Shown here: piece by piece, positions 1-8,493 of the stretch | How positions within the stretch are numbered: the stretch's first letter is position 1 | Layout of the letters: every line of letters begins with the position of its first letter | Virus record (IMG/VR): IMGVR_UViG_2703718808_000008 | Span: 1 to 8,493 of that record | Origin: a virus | Lineage: Duplodnaviria; Heunggongvirae; Uroviricota; Caudoviricetes | Length of the DNA stretch: 8,493 bases | Reading direction: 5' to 3' (one strand) | Position numbers and translations under genes: made by a program | The notes under the pieces: model-generated | Seen by the model: the letters and a program-made list of their open reading frames with translations, nothing else | Told to the model about the DNA's origin: nothing | Database searches by the model: none

Positions 1-354
1 TGCTGTTATATATAACTTATTTTGAATAACATATTGATTTAATTATATTTTCAATTAAGCCCGAAGTGCAAAAAAACTCAAAATAACTACACCAGTGACT
101 ACACCGTTCGGCGCACTGTATGAAACAACGTGGAACAAATAGGCACAAGAAATATAAAGGCGGGTAATTTTAAGGGGGCGTTGCTGTCGATATGGGGATT
201 CCCATATCGGGAACCCTACCGGAATTTTTTTCCGGTTAACAGTTAATCAGGCTGGTGGGCTTTACCTGTTCGGTAGGTGTTATGATTATCGTAATACCTT
301 TCCCTCAATGGGGTAAAAGCATCAACCGTAACGAAAGTCGTTATGGTTGCCGCC

Positions 355-467
355 GATACCCCAAATTTGGGTATCACGAGTAAGCCCCAAAATCTGGGTG
401 TTGCTCTTACTACCCAAACTACGGGTAGTTTCCGTAATTTCATGGTCGAGTTGCAGATCTGCAACTC
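355..467. other. Cluster of palindromic/hairpin motifs in non-coding DNA
   Basis: Three tandem units CCCAAA-N-GGGT at 355-375 (perfect 14-bp palindrome ACCCAAATTTGGGT), 385-400 and 411-427, then a perfect 20-bp palindrome GAGTTGCAGATCTGCAACTC at 448-467 with central GATC. Overlapping ORFs lack plausible RBS. Confidence 0.5.
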
Positions 468-505
468 CCCCATCAACCACAGGCGAATTTCCGCCTTCGG
501 TCATT

Positions 506-720
506 CCTTAATCATCTGCGTAATCATAATGATTATTCAGCCAGCGCAATTTTGCGCTTTGCTTTAAGTTCAACCAGTTACCGCCAGCTTCCCCCAATGG
601 GGGATTGTGGAATAATCAACGGTTTAGGCCTTAATCATCTGCGTAAACATAAGTAATCATAATGATCATTCAGCCAGCGCAATTTTGAGCTTTGCTTTAA
701 TCTCAGTGAGTTACCGCCGC
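506..720. repeat. Direct repeat, two copies of an ~85-95 bp unit (506-588 and 629-720)
   Basis: Both copies share CCTTAATCATCTGCGTA...ATCATAATGAT(T/C)ATTCAGCCAGCGCAATTTTG(C/A)GCTTTGCTTTAA...AGTTACCGCC; copy 2 has a ~10-bp insertion and includes the stop codon of the 711-992 ORF. Confidence 0.8.
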
Positions 721-992
721 AACCGTTCCGGCTTCTTCCAGTGGTACGTGATTTTCTCCTTCTCCCGATACATCTCCACGCGGCGACGGTATGCCAGCAA
801 CTCAAGGACTCTGGTTCGTATGTTGCGCATATCCACGCCGTTAAGCTCAATACCATCACGGCGCATCACCTCAGCAACAACACGCGCATAATTTTCAGCG
901 GTCACGCTGTCCGGTTGCGTGCCCTGTTCGTCATGCTGCTGGCTGATTCCGGTAACGCGGCGGATTAATCGCAGTAGTTCGGCTTCTGTCAT
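711..992 (-). CDS. Hypothetical protein, 93 aa
   Basis: ORF with G-rich SD (GATGGGGG) just upstream of ATG at 992; lies between cos and the direct repeats. No family recognised. Confidence 0.5.
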   Translation of the reverse strand: MTEAELLRLIRRVTGISQQHDEQGTQPDSVTAENYARVVAEVMRRDGIELNGVDMRNIRTRVLELLAYRRRVEMYREKEKITYHWKKPERLRR

Positions 993-1046
993 TGTGCCCC
1001 CATCGTTCTGATAGCCTGGTGTCGTCGGGTCCTTCCTGGAATTATG

Positions 1047-1140
1047 GCCCGTTACGGGGCGGCGACCTCGCGGTTTTTATCTGTTTATGAAAATTTTCCG
1101 GCAAAAGTCAGATCCGTTCTTCTTCTCTGTAACAGACTGT
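1047..1140 (+). other. Lambda-type cos site (cosN with 12-nt cohesive-end sequence at 1057-1068, plus cosB-like segment)
   Basis: 1051-1073 reads GTTACG GGGCGGCGACCT CGCGG, matching the recalled lambda right-end/left-end junction; downstream TTTATGAAAATTTTCCGG and CCGTTCTTCTTC match recalled lambda cosB-proximal sequence. Confidence 0.75.
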
Positions 1141-1218
1141 TTAACAATGAAAATATTAAAAAAAGAAAGGATCTGACACGAGGCATTTTAGCCAGAAAAT
1201 GCCATTATCAGATCCTTT
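1140..1218 (-). terminator. Intrinsic terminator downstream of TerS-like gene (nested hairpin, possibly bidirectional)
   Basis: Outer inverted repeat AAAGGATCTGA (1166-1176) / TCAGATCCTTT (1208-1218) enclosing inner GGCATTTT (1182-1189) / AAAATGCC (1196-1203); on the minus strand followed by CTTTTTTTAATATTTT. Confidence 0.6.
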
Positions 1219-1247
1219 CTCATTTTTGTTCAATAATTGCGCTTCTG

Positions 1248-1790
1248 TTACTTGCCTTTCTTCTGTAGCAACTTTTCCGGTACGTTTCCGGTTGTTTCTT
1301 TCAAGTAATCAGCCAGTATCTGTGGGAGGTTGTCGGCAACTCTGGCACTGGCATTACAGGCTTTAACCACTTCCCTTTTAAGCCTGTCCAGCATGGCGGG
1401 GGTAATCTGTGGGAAGCTCCTTTGCATAGTAAGCGGGAGGCTGTCCATGATTGATGAAATCTGACTCGCCAGCTTTGAAAGCGCGTACAGGCAAAACTCA
1501 GTATCAATCACGTCACCGCGATCGCGCTCGTTTTTAAGTTCCTGCGCCTCCGCCTGTGCTGTCAGTAATCTGATCCTGACTCGTAAGAGTTCATCATCAT
1601 CAATATCGCCTTTGTCGTTTGTAAGCTGGCTAATTGCATTGTTAACCCTATTGTCTATCACGCTGGCAACATCATAAAACGCCTCACGGCCTTTACGTTC
1701 AACGGGAGTCACTCCCCACTTGTCGAACGCTGTCGCACTTACACGGCAGCTTTTCGCCATGTTTTTTTTGTTCATCAGGTGCGATTTCAT
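1248..1790 (-). CDS. Terminase small subunit homologue, lambda Nu1-like (possibly a satellite packaging-redirection protein)
   Basis: 180-aa ORF collinear with recalled lambda Nu1: N-terminal DNA-binding region (MNKKN..., G-KG-E--YD-A-VI) and central block LTAQAEAQELKNERD...TEFCLYALSKLA...I-S-LPL--QR-FP. Start uncertain (1790 or 1775), no strong SD. Confidence 0.85.
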   Translation of the reverse strand: MKSHLMNKKNMAKSCRVSATAFDKWGVTPVERKGREAFYDVASVIDNRVNNAISQLTNDKGDIDDDELLRVRIRLLTAQAEAQELKNERDRGDVIDTEFCLYALSKLASQISSIMDSLPLTMQRSFPQITPAMLDRLKREVVKACNASARVADNLPQILADYLKETTGNVPEKLLQKKGK

Positions 1791-1913
1791 TAATACACCA
1801 ACTTAATTACTGCTTCAGGTTGGTGTATTGTTTGCATCTTTCCCTTTTCATTCATAAAGATAGAGCAAACAACAAAACCACCACCACCCCCCTGAAAAGG
1901 CTCATAAATAGCG

Positions 1914-1968
1914 AAAACGCGCGAGGTCGTCGCCCCGTAACGGGTCCATATGCCGGAAAGGACCCGTA
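1914..1968 (-). other. Second, degenerate cos-like sequence in inverted orientation upstream of the TerS-like gene
   Basis: Reverse complement reads GGGTCCTTTCCGGCATATGGACCCGTTACGGGGCGACGACCTCGCGCGTTTTCGCTATTTATGA, about 85 percent identical to 1024-1078 and matching recalled lambda GTTTTCGCTATTTATGA; two substitutions in the cohesive-end/cosN core. Confidence 0.55.
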
Positions 1969-1991
1969 AAAAAAGCCGGATTTCTCCGGCC
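1968..1991 (-). terminator. Intrinsic terminator after the capsid operon
   Basis: Minus strand reads GCCGGA-GAAA-TCCGGC followed by TTTTTTT, immediately after the stop of the 1996-2409 ORF. Confidence 0.7.
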
Positions 1992-1995
1992 TGTC

Positions 1996-2409
1996 TCAGA
2001 TGGTTTTCAGTATGCGATCGATGTCGCCGTCATCGCCCGGGTTTCTGCCATCGTATGCCATGCCAGCTGATACGGCTTGCGGGCTGTGCATGTCCATAAA
2101 GTTTTCAAAGGCTGCGGTAAGCTCCGGCGCAACCTTCGGACGTTCCTGCTCTATGGTCATGCTAAGGATGCTTTTAGCCGTACCAACATCGATACAAGGC
2201 ACGTTTGCCATTGCACGTAACAGCGGCTGATAGTCGCCAGATTCATCAAGCGCCATAATCGCATCAGCGCGCGGCTTGTCCTGCTCTTCCAGTTTGTTAA
2301 GTTGATATATGGCCTCGTAGGTTGATAACCCTCTGTCAGCCATTGCCCGCGCTTCGGCTTTAAATTTACTCGCCAGCGGTAGCGTCATGATGCTTTCATT
2401 CGTTGCCAT
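1996..2409 (-). CDS. Hypothetical protein, 137 aa, last gene of the capsid operon
   Basis: SD AGGGGGAA upstream of ATG at 2409; starts 13 bp after the decoration gene stop and is followed by a terminator. No family recognised. Confidence 0.7.
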   Translation of the reverse strand: MATNESIMTLPLASKFKAEARAMADRGLSTYEAIYQLNKLEEQDKPRADAIMALDESGDYQPLLRAMANVPCIDVGTAKSILSMTIEQERPKVAPELTAAFENFMDMHSPQAVSAGMAYDGRNPGDDGDIDRILKTI

Positions 2410-2421
2410 CGTTCCCCCTGC

Positions 2422-2757
2422 TTATCGGGCCAGCGGCTGAACGGATACGCCAGACCCCGCAAAGGCAGCGCATTTTTTCGCGTCAGTGTCGGCGCTCTCA
2501 GGCCAGTTTACGGCAGCGATATTAAATATCCCCGTCTTGTAACACTGTGCTGATTTCTGCGTCGACGTGTCCACGGGGTACGAAGTCAGATAAACAGCCT
2601 TGCCAGATTCCTGACCATCCCACGGCTTAAACTCGCCATTGTCCGCCAGCATCAGCGGGGTAAATTCCTGAATAACGCCAGCATCAGCGGCAAAATGTAC
2701 CAGCGTCGTGGCGACCTGCTGACTGCCTGCGAATAACTCAATGTATGGAGTGTCCAT
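2422..2757 (-). CDS. Head decoration protein, lambda gpD-like
   Basis: 111-aa ORF sharing blocks with recalled lambda gpD (TPLML, WDG, YK-G-F, WPE, KK-AFAG); SD GGGGGA; 11-bp gap after the capsid gene stop. Confidence 0.85.
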   Translation of the reverse strand: MDTPYIELFAGSQQVATTLVHFAADAGVIQEFTPLMLADNGEFKPWDGQESGKAVYLTSYPVDTSTQKSAQCYKTGIFNIAAVNWPESADTDAKKCAAFAGSGVSVQPLAR

Positions 2758-2768
2758 AGAATCCCCCG

Positions 2769-3824
2769 TTAACCAATTTTGACGGTAACAAATTTGCGAA
2801 TATCTGCCGGTACCGGCTGCGGTGCGCTGTGTGTCTGCACGTACTCAATCGCCGGATCGCCGTCCTCAATCCAGTTTTTCGGGTAGTACATGTTTTGCGT
2901 TGCGCCCGTTCTGACCGCTTCCTGATCCATAATCGCACCATAGGCCACCAGGCCTTTATTGTTGGTGTTACCCAGGACCAGTAAATCAGGCTCAAGGAAA
3001 TATTTTTCGGTGCCGTCGCTGTCAGCGTATTTGCCGGAATAGACGATAAGGGCAATATCGCCCAGATAGCCTTTAAAGCTCACCACTTCGCCCAGGTTTT
3101 TACAGGCCAGTTCTGCGGCGGATTCTGAACCACGGGAAAGATCGTACAGCTCACGGAATTTTTTAAAGCTGCGTAACGTGCGCCATACCTCAGCGCCCAT
3201 AATCATGACGTTTGCGGGGCAACCAGCCTGATCTGCATAAAGCTCGATGTCATAGATTGGGTCGTGCATCTCTTTATCCTGCTCGGACCATTTTTTACCC
3301 TTGGCCTGCTCTATGATGCAGTTTTCCGGTATTTTCCAGTCTATTTCATAGCGTTCTATGCCTTCGCCCTCAATAATGTTTTTTCCGGTCGTTATCGCAT
3401 TCACCGCCAGCCATTCCACGCGCGCTTTAATGGCGTTTACCTGGCGGCGCATGTTGCCAGTAATCAGGCGCATACGTCGGTAGGTAGGGTCGTTAAGCTG
3501 TGCCGGATCTTCTCCAGCCATGCGCATGATGGTTTTTGTTGGATCGATTTCGTGCTTTGGCTTCATGTAGCCAGGTTTAATCGTGCTGGTTTCGTATCCT
3601 TTATCGCGCTGTACCTGGCTGCCAACCATAGGCGAACAAAACGCCGACATGGTGACTTCTTCAATGTCCAGGGTATCCAGCATGATGTTTTGGGTGCTGA
3701 ATGTCGCCACGTTCGGGAAAAACAGCGTGGTAAACAGCGGACTGAATTTAAATTCCGCAATATCCCCGCGATTCAGGTACGCAAAAAGCTGGTTAGTGTT
3801 AAGTGCCGTTGCTTTGCCTGCCAT
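2769..3824 (-). CDS. Major capsid protein, lambda gpE-like
   Basis: 351-aa ORF sharing many collinear blocks with recalled lambda gpE (FKF-PLF-LFF, PGY-KPKHE, DP-YRR-R-I-NMR, RSFK, RGS-S, VS-KG-GD-A-VYSG-Y, VLGNT, YPKNW, GDPA); SD GGGGG; start overlaps upstream stop (TAATG). Confidence 0.92.
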   Translation of the reverse strand: MAGKATALNTNQLFAYLNRGDIAEFKFSPLFTTLFFPNVATFSTQNIMLDTLDIEEVTMSAFCSPMVGSQVQRDKGYETSTIKPGYMKPKHEIDPTKTIMRMAGEDPAQLNDPTYRRMRLITGNMRRQVNAIKARVEWLAVNAITTGKNIIEGEGIERYEIDWKIPENCIIEQAKGKKWSEQDKEMHDPIYDIELYADQAGCPANVMIMGAEVWRTLRSFKKFRELYDLSRGSESAAELACKNLGEVVSFKGYLGDIALIVYSGKYADSDGTEKYFLEPDLLVLGNTNNKGLVAYGAIMDQEAVRTGATQNMYYPKNWIEDGDPAIEYVQTHSAPQPVPADIRKFVTVKIG

Positions 3825-4030
3825 TATTCACCCCCATAATTTTTATGCATCCCAAGCGCCGCAAGTAAATAAGAGCGCACAAGTGAACCTATCGACGGCT
3901 CCGGCGTCATCAGCGGATCCAGTCCAGCCGCTACGCCAGCCTCATAGTTTTTTTTGTGGCGCTGCTTGAGCACCTCCACGATTTCGGGGCTTATGTACAC
4001 GGTCACCCCGCCTTTTTTCTCTTCTGCCAT
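3824..4030 (-). CDS. Hypothetical 68-aa protein, first gene of the capsid operon
   Basis: ATG at 4028-4030 (MAEEKK...) preceded by SD AGAGGAA; the track's earlier start at 4063 lies inside the operator palindrome. Stop coupled to the capsid gene start. No family recognised. Confidence 0.6.
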   Translation of the reverse strand: MAEEKKGGVTVYISPEIVEVLKQRHKKNYEAGVAAGLDPLMTPEPSIGSLVRSYLLAALGMHKNYGGE

Positions 4031-4060
4031 AGTCAGAAATTCCTCTTTGACTAAAAAAAT

Positions 4061-4114
4061 CATAACTGGATGTTCATCCAGTTATGATTATAATCATGAT
4101 TGCATTTTGTGCAA
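4061..4114 (-). promoter_or_regulatory. Putative sigma70-type promoter of the capsid operon with overlapping operator palindrome
   Basis: Minus-strand -35 TTGCAC (plus coords 4109-4114), 16-nt spacer, -10 TATAAT (4087-4092); perfect 12-2-12 inverted repeat CATAACTGGATG-TT-CATCCAGTTATG at 4061-4086 around the predicted start, and 14-bp palindrome ATGATTATAATCAT at 4085-4098. Confidence 0.4.
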
Positions 4115-4192
4115 TGATGTTGAGTTGTGTTGCAAATTATGAAATTATTATCCCGATCATGTGTGTCAGTGCACCAAAAAAACCTCATATGC

Positions 4193-4234
4193 AAAAGCCC
4201 GATAAGTTTCCTCTGACCTTATCGGGCTTTTTTA
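4193..4234 (+). terminator. Intrinsic terminator, likely bidirectional
   Basis: GCCCGATAAG (4197-4206) / CTTATCGGGC (4218-4227) stem flanked by AAAA upstream and TTTTTT downstream. Confidence 0.6.
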
Positions 4235-4408
4235 TCTGCCTGCAAAGATGTCGAACAAAAATTAACCACAACCATCATCTTTTTTGCATCAAAACAATTA
4301 AAAACAATAAATTACGCTCATGATGATGATGACGATAAAATCACAAAAATGCGCTTTTTTCCGCGCCGACCCGCCTCGTGGACAGGCCCCCCCGCCAGGA
4401 GTACCTAC

Positions 4409-4431
4409 AAAAAAGCCGGATTTTCTCCGGC
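4409..4431 (-). terminator. Intrinsic terminator after the SSB-like gene
   Basis: Minus strand reads GCCGGA-GAAAA-TCCGGC then TTTTTT, 8 bp after the SSB-like stop; near-identical to the terminator at 1968-1991. Confidence 0.7.
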
Positions 4432-4439
4432 CATGATGT

Positions 4440-4850
4440 TCAGAAAGGAATATTGTCACCGTAGGGGTCATCGCCTCCAGCTGGTGGCTGATTACCCTGT
4501 GTGCCTGTGGTTTTGCGTCTGTTCCCGCCAGGACGTGCCGCACGGGCACTGATTACGCTGTCTGCAATAACCTGATAACCCTGCCGCGTTTCCCCGTTCT
4601 GTCCGGTCCACTGGCTTATCTGCATCACGCCAGATATGCTGGCAACGTCGCCTTTTTGATGTTTAGCCAGGAAGTCGGCCTGCTTACCAAATGCCATCAC
4701 CGATAGCCATAACGTAGCCGTTCCGTCATCTGCCTGGCTGCACGGAAGGGGGACCGCCATACGCGCCAGCGTCATCGGTGTGCCCTTGCTGGTCTGTTTT
4801 ACCTGCGGGTCGTCCACCAGCCGCCCGTAAGCGGCTATCTGTGCTGTCAT
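4440..4850 (-). CDS. ssb: Single-stranded DNA-binding protein homologue
   Basis: 136-aa ORF with OB-fold-like blocks resembling recalled E. coli SSB (GRL-DDP-V, W--V--FGK, W-G), Gly/Pro-rich linker and C-terminal ...DNIPF resembling the SSB tip DDDIPF; SD GGAGAGGTGG; start overlaps upstream stop (ATGA). Confidence 0.75.
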   Translation of the reverse strand: MTAQIAAYGRLVDDPQVKQTSKGTPMTLARMAVPLPCSQADDGTATLWLSVMAFGKQADFLAKHQKGDVASISGVMQISQWTGQNGETRQGYQVIADSVISARAARPGGNRRKTTGTQGNQPPAGGDDPYGDNIPF

Positions 4851-5161
4851 GATTCCACCTCTCCGGTTTTAACGTTGATGGTTGTTACCTGTTCCGCTTC
4901 GGCAATCTCCCGTTCTGTCAGCGTGGCAAAGTTTGCCGCCGCTGTGGTCATGAATGCGCTTATCAGTTCGGGATGTTCCTTCGCGTATCCTTCCCGCGTG
5001 TGGCGGTCTATCGTTCTGATTGCCACCTTTAAGGTGTGCTCAGTCATGTCTAACGCTTTATATTTTGGCTCTGTTCTGTCTCTGCGAATTTTGGTCATTT
5101 GTCGCCCCTGATTCATGTTTTCGGCTGGCATGTTTGTTAAGTGATTTTGATGTATGCGCAT
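4847..5161 (-). CDS. Hypothetical protein, 104 aa
   Basis: Strong SD GAGGGGGTGA upstream of ATG at 5161; coupled to the SSB-like gene; directly downstream of the iteron region. No family recognised. Confidence 0.6.
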   Translation of the reverse strand: MRIHQNHLTNMPAENMNQGRQMTKIRRDRTEPKYKALDMTEHTLKVAIRTIDRHTREGYAKEHPELISAFMTTAAANFATLTEREIAEAEQVTTINVKTGEVES

Positions 5162-5208
5162 TTATTTTCACCCCCTCGTTTAAAAAGTTTTTAGTTGTGC
5201 CTCCCCCC

Positions 5209-5431
5209 CTCTACCCATCTACCCGAATGCTCATCATGTCAGTAATGGCGCGGCTTTCAGCGGGTAGATAGCTTTTTGGGCTCCTCTACCTGCCGTCTAC
5301 CCTGCTACCTGAAACTGATAAAATCAGGTAGAAGAGGTAGAGAGCTTTTATTAGCCTTCCACCTGGCCCTCTACCCACTTATCATGTTGAATAATATACG
5401 TTTATTTCATTCAGGTAGATGGGGTAGAGGG
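5209..5431. repeat. Iteron array, putative origin of replication
   Basis: At least 11 copies of (C)TCTACC(C/T) in both orientations (5209-5224, 5262-5269, 5283-5311, 5325-5344, 5366-5377, 5412-5430) with an AT-rich stretch at 5376-5411, directly downstream of the primase gene. Confidence 0.7.
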
Positions 5432-5444
5432 CTTTTACAAAAAA

Positions 5445-7193
5445 TTATAAAAACGCGTCGCAATCGTCTGTTGTAATTGCGTTGGTCTGCGTTACTCCCT
5501 TAACTTTTCGCGTAATATATTCATGCCCGTAAACTTTCGCCGCTGGCTTCATGGCCTTGCTGAACTCAGCCACGTTTAGCGGTTTGCTCCTGCCTGCGTA
5601 TGCCATAAACGCCAGATAGACGCGGTAAAGGCTGTTCCTGGTCGTGTACTTCACTGAATCACCACCGCCACCCATCATCAGGCCGCGCGCTTCCTCCAGA
5701 AAATTCAGGAACTGGCAAAACTCAATAACCGGATCCGTCTGTTGCTTTATCGCCAGTGCTTCATCTCCGTCACGCTGTTCCAGTAGTAAAGCCCGTGCCT
5801 TCTCAGGGTCGGTAAAGTTCGCCAGCAAGCGGCGGATAATAACGGGGATTTCAGCCGCGATCTTTTCCGGTAGTTCCCTGTCTTTTTCGGCCTCACTGAC
5901 GATATTGTCGAAACGGAAAATCACGCGACGACGTGCCACACCTCCGGCCCGTTCGGTGAATATCATCGGGTTATTGTTGGTCGCCAGCACCACCGCCCTG
6001 ATTACCGCCGTGAAACGCTTTTCATATTTCGGGTTTATTTCCACGGGGTCGCCGCCCGTGATTTTCTTGATGCCCGTTCCTTCGCCTGTATATTTCGGCT
6101 GGTCTGCCAGGACGATAAGACGACTCCCGACAACCTGCGCACGTCCACCAGCATCATCAAGCGATGTCATTTCAGCGCTTACCGTGTTCTGTTTCCCTGC
6201 CAGAAGGCTGGCTATGTGCGTGAATGTACTTTTACCGCTCCCGCCATCTCCTGTGGCCTCAATAAACATCTGCCAGTCGTACCGGTTCGCCATAATCATG
6301 TACAGCGCGGCACATATACGCATCATCTTGTGCGGGTCTTTTCCGGCTGCGTGCTCAAGCCATTTATGAAAGTTTGGCGCGTTGTCGCAAATGTTCTCCC
6401 CTGGTGCTGGTGGCGTGTACTCAATGCCGTTGTGCGTGGTGATCCAGTTCTCCGGCGTGTGCGGGGAAAATTCCCCCGTTTTCAGGTCAAGTGCACCATT
6501 GGCGAACGGCAACAAATCGCCGGACGGCTCGCCCATTGGTTCGGCAATAACTTTTAACGCTTCCACGGCGTTATTGATTACGCGTTTGCTGAAAGTGGCC
6601 CTGTGCTCTGAATAGATCGCCACCATTTCGCGGCTCAGCTCCATTGTGCTGACCGGACACCATACCCCGCCGCGCCATACGTGAACGATTTCACTTTCCG
6701 GATGCACACAAACGCCATCAAAGCGCTCGGCAAGCAGCTGCGCGCGCTCACTGTCTGCCATTTGTGCCAGTTGCGTATTTTTCTGCTCCGGCATGGTAAG
6801 CCCTGCGGCAATATTTTCACGCTCAGCATTCAGATAGCGCCGCCAGTTTTCACACTTCTGGACGTGCATTCCTTCGTGGTAAAAATTTGCGTCCTGAATA
6901 TCTGCCGCCGCCAGCTTCTGACCAATCTTTTTGGTCTCCACTAAATCCAGTTCTCCGGCCTGGTACAGCCTTACGCGCTTTTTCCCATCCGGAACAATTT
7001 TCAGCGCATCAAGTTCGGCAAGCTGATTTGGCCCAAGCCACACAGGCGGCACATTATCGCCGGATGCGGGGCCATCCTGCTCCTGCCATTGTTTCGCGTG
7101 CGACCAGGCATCACTACCCGCAAAGATAATTACCTCTGTGTCTTTGTGTTTTATTCCGCGTGGCTGTTTTTTTACGTTCGGTGCCAGTTTCAT
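5445..7193 (-). CDS. Primase/helicase, P4 alpha (D5-like) family
   Basis: 582-aa ORF with Walker A GDGGSGKST and the size and layout of P4-family primase-helicase proteins; SD AGGGGT; start overlaps upstream ORF stop (ATGA). Confidence 0.9.
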   Translation of the reverse strand: MKLAPNVKKQPRGIKHKDTEVIIFAGSDAWSHAKQWQEQDGPASGDNVPPVWLGPNQLAELDALKIVPDGKKRVRLYQAGELDLVETKKIGQKLAAADIQDANFYHEGMHVQKCENWRRYLNAERENIAAGLTMPEQKNTQLAQMADSERAQLLAERFDGVCVHPESEIVHVWRGGVWCPVSTMELSREMVAIYSEHRATFSKRVINNAVEALKVIAEPMGEPSGDLLPFANGALDLKTGEFSPHTPENWITTHNGIEYTPPAPGENICDNAPNFHKWLEHAAGKDPHKMMRICAALYMIMANRYDWQMFIEATGDGGSGKSTFTHIASLLAGKQNTVSAEMTSLDDAGGRAQVVGSRLIVLADQPKYTGEGTGIKKITGGDPVEINPKYEKRFTAVIRAVVLATNNNPMIFTERAGGVARRRVIFRFDNIVSEAEKDRELPEKIAAEIPVIIRRLLANFTDPEKARALLLEQRDGDEALAIKQQTDPVIEFCQFLNFLEEARGLMMGGGGDSVKYTTRNSLYRVYLAFMAYAGRSKPLNVAEFSKAMKPAAKVYGHEYITRKVKGVTQTNAITTDDCDAFL

Positions 7194-7489
7194 TTTTTAC
7201 CCCTGAATACGTTAAGCATCTTTTTTATTTCCTGAATATTGGCGCGTGCTTTCTCCCTGCTGGTGGGCACGTTACGCGGTACGGCCTGCACAAGAGAAAA
7301 ATCACGGTCGAACTGATAAACAGGCATCACGCAATCATATTCGTAGCCTTCACGACGGTAAGTTACGCGCCGTTCCTCCACGCCCTTAATCATTACCGTG
7401 CCGCCGTACTGGTCGCGGTAAATATCACCGCGCATGAATTTAGTGCGAGTTTTGCCACTGGCAGTTAAGCCAGAATATTTAAGTTTCAT
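7190..7489 (-). CDS. Hypothetical protein, 99 aa, coupled to primase
   Basis: SD GGAGAA upstream of ATG at 7489; stop overlaps the primase start. No family recognised. Confidence 0.65.
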   Translation of the reverse strand: MKLKYSGLTASGKTRTKFMRGDIYRDQYGGTVMIKGVEERRVTYRREGYEYDCVMPVYQFDRDFSLVQAVPRNVPTSREKARANIQEIKKMLNVFRGKK

Positions 7490-7494
7490 TATTT

Positions 7495-7725
7495 TTATTC
7501 TCCGGTGTGGGGCGCGTTATTATTTTCGTGAATTGCCATTGCCTTATCCAGTTCATCAATAACAGGCGATAGTAATGTCTGAACGGCGGCAAGCATTAAT
7601 GACGAAGATTCTTCTCCAGCTTCCGTTGCTTCAATTAATTTAATTAACAACACATTCATTTCGCGTGCTTTAATTAATGCGTTTTCAGAGTGGATTAATA
7701 CTTCAAAAGGGATTTTATGCATCAC
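7495..7725 (-). CDS. Hypothetical small protein, about 75 aa
   Basis: GTG at 7725 (SD AAGGGAG, 7-nt spacing) or ATG at 7722; 5-bp gap to the downstream ORF. Predicted helical, no family recognised. Confidence 0.55.
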   Translation of the reverse strand: MMHKIPFEVLIHSENALIKAREMNVLLIKLIEATEAGEESSSLMLAAVQTLLSPVIDELDKAMAIHENNNAPHTGE

Positions 7726-7945
7726 AAATTTTCTCCCTTATTCTTTTAATGTCCTCATTAAGGATGTCTGTAACTTTTATCAGCGAGTTTTTGGCAATTA
7801 TTTTTATTGTTTTAAGTTTTCTTTTGTCGTGCTCCGACTGTGATTTTCTCTCCATGCTCTCCACCATGTGGGTAACATCAACGAGCGCACGTATCAGTAT
7901 TTGCATTGCTTCTTCTGCTGCGTCCGGTGTGGTTTTATTGTGCAT
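7715..7945 (-). CDS. Hypothetical small protein, 76 aa, first gene of the replication operon
   Basis: ATG at 7943-7945 preceded by SD AGGGGGA (the track's 7987 start is a GTG without SD); overlaps the next ORF by 11 nt. Confidence 0.5.
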   Translation of the reverse strand: MHNKTTPDAAEEAMQILIRALVDVTHMVESMERKSQSEHDKRKLKTIKIIAKNSLIKVTDILNEDIKRIREKICDA

Positions 7946-8057
7946 AGGTTTCCCCCTGGCGAATACGGGCGGCAAATACAGCAACACAACCGGACGGGCA
8001 ACGGCTACGCGCTTCGCGTTCCGTCCAGGCGGTTACGTGGATGATTTGAGATTCTCC

Positions 8058-8101
8058 GGCACTCAGTGCCAGAAAACGCCACACAAAGGCCGTTTGTGTG
8101 T
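8058..8101. promoter_or_regulatory. Two adjacent palindromes in the divergent control region (candidate operators)
   Basis: GGCACT-C-AGTGCC at 8058-8070 and CACACAAA-GGCCG-TTTGTGTG at 8081-8101, upstream of the minus-strand replication operon. Confidence 0.3.
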
Positions 8102-8209
8102 GTGCTAGTCGTGGGGTATGATTTACGGCAACCATAAATTTACCTCTCTATAGTGTTTGTGGTTAGACGCCCTGCATGTGTTCCAGCACTGTGGGGCGTT
8201 GTTTTTTTG

Positions 8210-8279
8210 GTGCAAGTCACCTTGAAATCTAGGTTACTTTTAGGTGACTTGCACTTCAAGTCTTTTTTTATTTTTTTTT
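8210..8279 (+). other. Long inverted repeat followed by a T-run (operator or plus-strand terminator)
   Basis: Perfect 13-bp arms GTGCAAGTCACCT (8210-8222) / AGGTGACTTGCAC (8242-8254), interleaved second pair CTTGAA/TTCAAG, then T-rich tract 8263-8279; about 40 bp upstream of the plus-strand gene start. Confidence 0.4.
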
Positions 8280-8320
8280 CTCCGTATACTGAACACCACC
8301 TAACAGTAAGGAGAACAGAG

Positions 8321-8493
8321 ATGCCAACAGGTACAACCAACAACAAGTCACAACAAAAAACTGCTAGAGTACCTCTAGACGTTTTAAGCGAAATGAATTT
8401 GGTAAAAGAAGAAAACGAAACAGACGCACAATTTATCGTTACTGCCATGCGCGGCGAAATCAAACGCCGCCAGCGTCGCAAGGCCAAAGAATC
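8321..8493 (+). CDS. Partial CDS (5' end only) of unknown function, divergent from the replication operon
   Basis: ATG at 8321 preceded by SD AAGGAG at 7-nt spacing; frame open to the window end (MPTGTTNNKSQQKTARVPLDVLSEMNLVKEENETDAQFIVTAMRGEIKRRQRRKAKE...); noticeably more A-rich than the minus-strand genes. Confidence 0.55.
   Translation, partial: MPTGTTNNKSQQKTARVPLDVLSEMNLVKEENETDAQFIVTAMRGEIKRRQRRKAKE

Follow-up and report, generated by a model that had tools for sequence, protein, structure and literature searches.

The described elements closest to the one considered here are the cos-type phage-inducible chromosomal islands (PICIs) of Escherichia coli, including capsid-forming members such as EcCIEDL933 and Sakai Sp7. 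These span about 12 kb and possess a terminal integrase gene (int), a primase-helicase gene with an iteron origin, packaging and capsid genes, and a cohesive-end site (cos) of their own. The stretch of DNA analysed here, positions 1–8493 of IMG/VR record IMGVR_UViG_2703718808_000008 (8,493 nucleotides, hereafter the window), is the int-distal end of a PICI-like phage satellite of about 12 kb that is integrated in tqsA of E. coli, and the island resembles the described PICIs in each of these respects. Our subject is the region 150–500, a non-coding end block of this λ-cos-type satellite, with the attachment (att) arm on one side and on the other the gene that ends the packaging operon. Two exchangeable modules, A and B, make up the mosaic, followed by a hairpin, C′. 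The main palindromes of the block recur in λ-like phages within antirepressor-like genes encoding KilA-N, a DNA-binding domain. Module A is held in common with Sakai Sp7. The window island is unlike the capsid-forming PICIs (cf-PICIs) in pairing λ E/D-like capsid genes with a Nu1-like small terminase subunit (TerS) and a λ-type cos, whereas cf-PICIs have an HK97/HNH set. A non-coding end block is not mentioned in the searchable cf-PICI papers, and no description of the block or of palindromes embedded in KilA-N genes was found in the searchable literature.

The placement of the window follows from comparison with locus L001, an E. coli chromosome that is 99.9% identical to window positions 1–1100 and in which an island of about 12 kb interrupts tqsA, with a tyrosine recombinase (integrase) gene at the opposite island end. 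The genes of the window, all on the minus strand, encode a Nu1-like small terminase, a scaffold-like protein, λ D-like and E-like capsid proteins, a single-stranded-DNA-binding protein, a D5_N primase-helicase and a DUF4222 protein. Tail and lysis genes are absent from the L001 island, which marks it as a phage satellite of the PICI kind; it combines a specific att site and terminal integrase with its own replication module and with genes for packaging and capsid redirection. The initial annotation had suggested the border of an element as one possibility for the non-coding stretch, and the stretch does lie inside a mobile element near its border, the host tqsA fragment ending at about 16–23.

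Palindromes of the block and their phage counterparts

The region had been described from its letters as highly structured, with a 9-bp-stem palindrome, an A/T-looped palindrome, three tandem CCC/GGGT units and a perfect 20-bp palindrome with central GATC. All of these are present, the A/T-looped palindrome lying one base away from the 219–237 first assigned to it. Four hairpins, at 263–275, 276–298, 319–353 and 476–501, can be added to that list. The features of the block are as follows, with the strand given where a feature has one.

188–209: palindrome H1A, CGATATGGG-GATT-CCCATATCG, 9-bp stem
218–236: A/T-looped palindrome, ACCGGAA-TTTTT-TTCCGGT; relatives have single uncompensated mismatches
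251–258, plus strand: Chi site GCTGGTGG, inside module A and kept in most module A variants
263–353: rest of module A, with hairpins 263–275, 276–298 and 319–353 and a λ-iteron-like dyad, TCCCTCAATGGGG, at 301–313
350–479: module B, about 130 bp long, a cassette with sharp edges whose boundaries are the same in some 30 distinct islands, 90–94% identical
355–375: unit H1, GATACCC-N7-GGGTATC, 7-bp stem
382–402: unit H2, a weak dyad, AAGCCCC-AAAATCT-GGGTGTT, with a stem of only 3–4 bp; part of an alternative longer hairpin, 378–406
409–429: unit H3, ACTACCC-AAACTAC-GGGTAGT, 7-bp stem
448–467: palindrome P, GAGTTGCAGATCTGCAACTC; imperfect extension to 442–473 (12 of 14 pairs)
476–501: hairpin C′, ACCACAGGCG-AATTTC-CGCCTTCGGT

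Units H1, H2 and H3 share the pattern NNNNCCC-N7-GGGTNNN and have a start-to-start spacing of exactly 27 bp. The palindromes nevertheless have at least four different sequences, so that the suggestion of repeated copies of one binding site does not hold.

A short-word BLAST search of positions 150–720 against 281 non-satellite viral loci revealed only three recurrent pieces, 183/188–209/212, 353–377 and 447–467, with 23–180 matches each; three further segments were matched in just one or two loci. The first of these pieces corresponds to palindrome 188–209, of which 22–27 nucleotides are found exactly in more than 100 non-satellite viral contigs. In some of these it codes for DMGIPIS within a KilA-N allele (L264; Pfam KilA-N, 8e-27), and in others it lies in a non-coding spacer of the nin region, just before a terminator and a NinB-like gene. 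The same 20–23 nucleotides as palindrome P code for ELQICNS in KilA-N genes beside rusA, in the large prophage contigs L008 and L026 and in about 90 more. The H1 counterpart, GATACCCAAAATTTGGGTATC, which has one loop difference, codes for DTQNLGI in the KilA-N genes of Salmonella phage ST64B (sb46) and of L221, L222 and L190. In sb46, 45 bases upstream of this unit, lies CCGAGGGCGGAATTCCACCCTCGG, a hairpin that we call C and a near copy of C′, coding for TEGGIPPS. In the KilA-N allele of L190 the H1 unit stands in tandem with one that is H3-like, ACTACCCAAAATTTGGGTAGT. The exact H3 19-mer occurs in IMG/VR only in module B contexts, at 69 loci.

Most phage copies lie in frame in a variable loop of the KilA-N domain (Pfam E 8e-27 to 9e-21), and all four peptides occupy one position, immediately before the conserved motif RGG..QGT(Y/W)V. 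The centres of the phage copies are self-complementary (GGATCC, GAATTC, AGATCT and AAATTT). Among KilA-N alleles, none of the six degenerate palindrome codons varies synonymously, compared with 11 of the 13 flanking codons for the same residues, which argues that the palindrome is under constraint at the nucleotide level. That this constraint is independent of coding is further indicated by the non-coding copy in the nin-region spacer and by compensatory changes in the satellite copies (see below). Judged by these sequence matches, at least four units of the block (188–209, 355–375, 409–429 and 448–467), and probably also C′, belong to a lambdoid nin-region palindrome family, most phage copies of which are inside KilA-N genes.

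The satellite cassette itself most likely derives from a fragment of a KilA-N gene, because the first of two module B copies in island L003 keeps a decayed KilA-N continuation past P, complete with a stop codon (tblastn E 0.003). The whole string C-H1-H2-H3-P is found in no extant KilA-N protein.

Distribution, conservation and folding of the modules

Of 5426 complete E. coli genomes, 1317 have pieces of the region 140–520, at one to six places in each, and a search of the same region against 50,697 phage genomes gave no match. All of the loci examined are satellite islands, inserted at tqsA, downstream of phoQ (as is Sakai Sp7), beside clpS or at a tRNA-Ile gene. The region is evidently not ordinary host intergenic DNA, since it is confined to satellite islands at four chromosomal sites. 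In its extragenic palindromes accompanied by oriented consensus sites for integration host factor (IHF), downstream of operons, it is reminiscent of the repetitive extragenic palindromes and bacterial interspersed mosaic elements with IHF sites (REP/BIME; RIP/RIB). The sequences are unrelated, and REP/BIME have hundreds of dispersed copies per genome where the window palindromes have only the few places given above, which were in satellite islands wherever examined.

The islands carrying the block use three different packaging modules and maintain a constant order, from the island border through the non-coding block (440–1350 bp) to a 93-residue gene (phrog_1561) and the terminase. Module A extends from about 160 to 351, or from about 64 if the att arm is counted, and its recurrences are 70–90% identical; relatives have two alternative sequence versions of the region 260–300. 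Module B is the better conserved. In loci where it is 90–94% identical, the adjacent 93-residue gene is 81–86% identical, and module B is the higher in every locus compared. It is typically flanked on one side by hairpin C (GAAGGCGGAATTCCGCCCTCGG) and on the other by a small hairpin and an IHF-consensus box overlapping the 93-residue gene at its stop codon. In most islands hairpin C is on the opposite side of module B from C′ in the window.

In L003, L017 and L066, module B is duplicated as a direct repeat around an iteron and A/T-rich segment. The two copies in L003 are at 5573–5687 and 6007–6120, and between them lie some 320 bp with three repeats of the GCGGGTTAT type, an A/T-rich stretch and four copies in inverse orientation, which give this segment an origin-like appearance. 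In many capsid-forming relatives a piece of 83 bp, absent from the window, precedes hairpin C and is 91% identical to the HNH–TerS intergenic (cos) region of large prophages. Individual examples are at L130 1094–1176, L003 5390–5480 and L010 2060–2142, which are 91–94% identical to this intergenic region of large lambdoid prophages. The piece is probably the cos of the capsid-forming islands, located after the large terminase gene instead of before TerS. The position between modules is occupied elsewhere by cargo. L129 has at about 825–965 a toxin-like hydrophobic open reading frame (ORF) of 47 residues with a Shine–Dalgarno sequence and a terminator, and L128 has at 603–1364 an annotated abortive-infection gene.

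Covariation was examined in an alignment of 20 module B sequences, with 500 shuffles as the control. In four sequences the outer H1 pair, C-G, has become T-A, and C.A intermediates are also seen; an outer stem pair of P changes from G-C to A-T in two sequences, and the innermost pair of P does likewise in one. These compensatory changes involve three stem pairs and seven cells, a cell count reached by none of the 500 shuffles; the covariation score was reached by one. The loop of H1 is variable (CCAAATT, CTTTATT, CTATATT and CAAAATA) and its stem fixed. Transition mismatches comprise about four G.U and six A.C events, and as wobble-type changes are about equally frequent for both strands, no strand can be assigned.

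The claim of high structure was upheld when RNA folding was compared with shuffled sequence, the density of palindromes being beyond chance. The folding energy of 150–520 is −153.2 kcal/mol compared with −103.6 ± 6.1 for dinucleotide shuffles, and z is −8.15 for the plus strand and −6.65 for the minus strand. In 150-nucleotide windows sliding over the whole 8.5 kb, the lowest plus-strand z values are at 151–525 (−3.9, −5.7, −6.9 and −6.5). The minus-strand values there are −2.7, −3.7, −5.1 and −4.9, and the windows over cosB and the origin are lower on this strand, at −6.7 and −5.9.

The region is also, as first supposed, without credible coding capacity. ORFs 343–567 (plus), 322–504 (minus) and 243–476 (minus) had no match in a PHROG search (E 0.01), and a Pfam scan of the first two gave nothing significant even at a listing cut-off of E 10. 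In relatives, the ORFs in 150–500 have a 1-nucleotide deletion in one copy and an in-frame stop in another, and their C-termini are unconserved. Substitutions in the module B alignment, as far as tabulated, fall on all three codon positions and are not biased to synonymous ones. A comparison of the plus-strand translation of C plus B with 5.8 billion proteins returned just 16 sporadic short ORF calls, made from the cassette itself, and the match of the plus-strand ORF to KilA-N is limited to eight residues. A small gene in module B is excluded by the absence of family matches, the frameshift and stop in relatives, and the sporadic nature of the protein calls; no conserved protein-coding gene was found here by search.

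The Rfam 15 covariance models, applied with permissive thresholds to the window and to seven related loci, identified no relevant family over the region, so that this line of enquiry, advocated in the initial annotation, gave no assignment. The best overlap was with manA RNA, which scored 18 bits where the cut-off is 55 (E 0.31). We found no convincing promoter candidate in the block and, within 150–500, no intrinsic terminator in the form of a G+C-rich stem followed by a T-run; one terminator-like site is nearby, at 543–565 on the plus strand. The hairpins resemble intrinsic terminators and 3′-untranslated stabiliser hairpins in having G+C-rich stems downstream of an operon, and differ from them in the lack of U-tracts in 150–500 and in their self-complementary centres. 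The small RNAs Esr41 and Pas of pathogenic E. coli were considered and locate to other elements. Integron attC sites, CRISPR-like arrays, type III toxin–antitoxin loci, nut-like boxA/boxB and the Fur box were considered from sequence, and in each case the defining partner genes or consensus are lacking.

Sequences adjoining the block

The block begins at the end of the att arm, at about 150, and ends some 500 bp short of cos. The features on either side of it are listed here.

1–23, plus strand: 5′ fragment of host tqsA, with the island junction (att core region); the truncated tqsA coding sequence of L001 stops at window position 16
86–148, plus strand: probable att arm, with ACTACACC twice (86–93, 98–105) and G(R)AACAA three times at 10-bp spacing (122–128, 132–138, 142–148)
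506–718, plus strand: direct repeat 506–585/629–718, dyad TCCCCCAATGGGGGA at 590–604, IHF consensus at 614–626
711–992, minus strand: conserved 93-residue gene, phrog_1561, which always adjoins the non-coding block and is the last gene before it in at least three satellite families
1028–1226, plus strand: cosQ-cosN-cosB of the λ/phage 21 type, with GGGCGGCGACCT at 1057–1068 and R-like repeats at 1107–1124, 1160–1177 and 1208–1226

Two other tqsA-inserted islands, L125 and L127, are similar to the window only up to about position 23. The att-arm repeats are almost invariant across islands at the tqsA and phoQ-3′ sites, and a related version is present at the clpS site; by analogy with λ attP they are probably Int arm sites and sites for the recombination directionality factor (RDF). 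The alignment with λ cosQ-cosN-cosB covers 1028–1190, the third R-like repeat lying beyond it. Since the att arm ends near 150 and cos occupies 1028–1230, the block is itself neither att nor cos. The initial annotation had entertained both an attachment region and a packaging accessory. Neither role could be placed in 150–500, in that the arm repeats are confined to 86–148, with none of the attP type in the block, and the λ-type cos elements all sit outside it. The Nu1-like small-terminase gene (1248–1790) is on the strand opposite cos and reads toward it, an inversion relative to λ, where Nu1 reads away from cosB. A probable satellite replication origin is found at 5200–5440, just downstream of the D5_N primase-helicase gene, and contains about 11 copies of TCTACCY in both orientations.

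The 93-residue protein has more than 1000 homologues, and every named one among those listed is hypothetical. Its model is a three-helix bundle (predicted local distance difference test score, pLDDT, 74), for which no structural match was obtained, and its sequence had no match in Pfam or the PDB. Its identification as Rpp was considered and rejected. A search of genome contigs with the protein gave one locus.

The direct repeat of 80–90 bp duplicates the 3′ end of the 93-residue gene and the sequence downstream of it. Each copy includes an A/T-rich palindrome, AATCATAATGATTATT, which is loosely Fur-box-like, and a dyad, AGCGCAATTTTGCGCT; in the first copy a T-run after this dyad produces the terminator-like site at 543–565. 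The IHF consensus WATCAANNNNTTR occurs in the window at 614–626 on the plus strand and at 39–27 on the minus strand. In 36 related non-coding ends (22,975 nucleotides) one strand has 48 occurrences and the other a single one, where 0.56 would be expected. A short variable hairpin usually lies before these sites, and in one copy the site and the stop codon of the 93-residue gene overlap.

Chi sites number six in the 8.5 kb, at 251–258, 4480–4487, 4814–4821, 6145–6152, 6406–6413 and 7259–7266, where shuffles predict 0.25. In related islands (L003, L041 and L074) the non-coding ends have 2.6 Chi sites per kb. In cf-type islands, opposed Chi sites flank the cos-like piece and are oriented to stop RecBCD arriving from either cohesive end; the site at 251–258 is oriented toward the λ-type right end. 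The dyads at 301–313 and 590–604, the latter followed by TTG, are closely similar to iteron 3 of the λ origin, TCCCTCAAATTGGGGGATTG, and related islands have CCTCAAATTGAGG-type dyads. Finally, the TTACCGCC box found where the 93-residue gene stops (711–718) recurs in inverted form as GGCGGGTAAT at 159–168, so that the 560-bp non-coding block is bracketed by an inverted repeat of about 10 bp, which could be a chance occurrence.

Possible roles of the palindromes

Binding by a dimeric protein and folding as a structured RNA, the two readings offered in the initial annotation, both stay live. Our tentative preference, which we put at somewhat below an even chance, is that 150–500 may be an array of dyad-symmetric double-stranded DNA sites for a dimeric protein, the candidate binder being a helper KilA-N protein. 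DNA is favoured over RNA because the phage copies are symmetric through their centres, which would be unneeded in a hairpin loop, because the changes have no strand bias and because KilA-N is a DNA-binding domain. On the proposed course of events, a fragment of a KilA-N gene would have been captured and its reading frame would have decayed, while the palindromes were retained, multiplied and shuffled. These would be bound, as double-stranded DNA, by a dimeric DNA-binding protein, most economically the helper phage's KilA-N protein, which would recognise the same site as in its own gene. The main palindromes being the same as those in the KilA-N genes of λ-like phages, the satellite may sense or decoy its helper in this way; and as several KilA-N alleles have matching sites in the array, several helpers could have their early proteins sensed or titrated by it. 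Bending of the DNA at the oriented IHF sites of the adjoining block might assist. In a more specific proposal, to which we give distinctly less credence, the perfect, allele-specific palindrome in the surface loop of KilA-N genes would work in cis, as a site bound by the gene's own product or as the target of an RNA. Satellites would have removed the palindromes of several alleles from their genes and assembled them into a non-coding array beside the att/cos end, in order to detect or titrate the early KilA-N function of any helper present, or to silence it by the pairing of self-complementary RNA.

Several observations weigh against an array of protein sites. H2 and the hairpins of 263–353 have no phage counterpart, and the window encodes no KilA-N protein. 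A lone 20-mer match in some 10^11 nucleotides of viral contigs is not beyond chance, and the phage link depends on the convergence of four palindromes on one protein loop. The covariation is thin, at three pairs, a number matched by 55 of the 500 shuffles, and single uncompensated mismatches occur in several relatives, chiefly in module A. The high conservation of module B could stem from recent spread by recombination rather than from selection. As a precedent, the Roi protein of phage HK022, encoded in the nin region, reportedly binds a site inside its own gene with an IHF site adjacent (Clerget and Boccard 1996, J Bacteriol 178:4077). The HK022 gene belongs to the Rha/KilAC type and lacks any such palindrome, for which reason the precedent is only conceptual; roi was rejected as a direct homologue of the palindrome-bearing genes, its domain type being different.

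A structured RNA, which we regard as rather unlikely, would be either the 3′-untranslated tail of the minus-strand packaging operon or plus-strand RNA read in from the host gene, and might serve as a stabiliser, a barrier to processing or termination, a decoy, or a strand-independent antisense to helper KilA-N mRNA; because a perfect palindrome is self-complementary, a palindromic RNA could pair with the palindrome of that mRNA. The very low folding z values, lower throughout on the plus strand (−3.9 to −6.9, compared with −2.7 to −5.1), would suit such an RNA, as would the location of the block directly downstream of the minus-strand operon and the reading-in of a host gene at three of the four insertion sites. 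The compensatory changes count in its favour too, palindrome 188–209 adjoins an intrinsic terminator in the phage nin spacer, and satellite and phage copies are identical over 20–27 nucleotides. Set against these are the lack of an Rfam family, of a convincing promoter and of a U-tract after any hairpin within 150–500, together with wobble changes that show no strand bias and phage centres whose self-complementarity would be unexpected in RNA loops. About as doubtful, in our estimation, is the idea that the block is a neutral relic, a captured KilA-N fragment in decay together with recombination scars, its palindromes merely inherited and its conservation a result of recent spread and shuffling. 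A plus-strand frame that stays open across C, H1, H2, H3 and P and encodes KilA-N-like peptides would be natural in a relic, and so would the decayed homology and stop codon beyond P in L003. The mosaic make-up with its sharp borders and duplications, the uncompensated stem mismatches and the cargo genes at the same position in other islands point the same way. A relic would not readily account for the conservation of module B above that of the adjacent protein-coding gene, nor for compensatory changes. Moreover, the palindromes alone survive, the conserved KilA-N core (LNDLH..., GTYVCKEL...) having been lost, and the units match at least four KilA-N alleles, none of which has the whole string, so that several captures or a selective assembly would be required.

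We consider it improbable that the palindromes are accessory att or packaging elements, that is, extra sites for Int, RDF or terminase. The block does touch the att arm, and relative to cos it is on the side packaged last; the 83-bp piece shared with the prophage HNH–TerS (cos) region directly adjoins module B and hairpin C in capsid-forming relatives, and IHF-consensus sites are abundant nearby. Islands differ, however, in the distance from module B to the att arm (about 250 to 900 bp), and the module is sometimes internal (L019); it is found with three packaging modules and several att sites. Phage cos regions are without these palindromes, and the λ cos elements are all accounted for at 1028–1226. 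Least probable of all, and by our judgement very much so, is an origin of the lambdoid type, in which the dyads at 27-bp spacing, the A/T-rich spacer and the palindrome would be bound by an O-like initiator of the helper. The layout of iterons, A/T-rich stretch and palindrome does recall the λ origin, whose iterons in gene O are tandem dyads of 18–21 bp inside an open frame, encode short repeated peptides and are followed by a palindrome. There is a likeness between PQNLG, with its DNA CCCCAAAATCTGGG, and λ iteron 1, CCCTCAAAACGAGGG, coding for PQNEG, as there is between the dyads at 301–313 and 590–604 and iteron 3. The arm sequences differ, however; the period of 27 bp compares with about 20–24 in λ, and there are three units where four or more are required. 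In place of a 40-bp A/T-rich stretch the block has an 18-bp spacer, and there is no initiator gene. Among 261 loci every cluster of at least three units is module B itself, and neither an O-like gene with such iterons nor a phage origin with these units was found there. The satellite has, besides, its own iteron origin at 5200–5440. The TCTACCY iterons of that origin resemble H3, and module B was considered as a set of sites for the satellite's own initiator; this too was set aside, as module B accompanies unrelated replication modules. An array of double-stranded DNA sites for a dimeric protein is the reading that we favour. Our confidence that the observation, its context and the phage link are real is high, whereas our confidence in the proposed mechanism is moderate to low.

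Palindromes of at least 20 bp that do not vary at synonymous sites in the KilA-N genes of many prophages are thus gathered in a conserved non-coding cassette that is present, whole or in part, in about a quarter of complete E. coli genomes. Helper recognition by E. coli satellites and the function of the widespread KilA-N genes of the nin region are both poorly understood, and the analysis connects the two in a testable manner. To our knowledge, the known mechanisms by which satellites recognise their helpers are protein-based; the device proposed here, if true, would be one based on nucleic acid. Should the palindromes not be targets, the block would still be a useful marker of module exchange between satellite families. 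If they are targets of a protein or an RNA, they would represent a new interface between satellite and helper and, in lambdoid phages, a new cis element.

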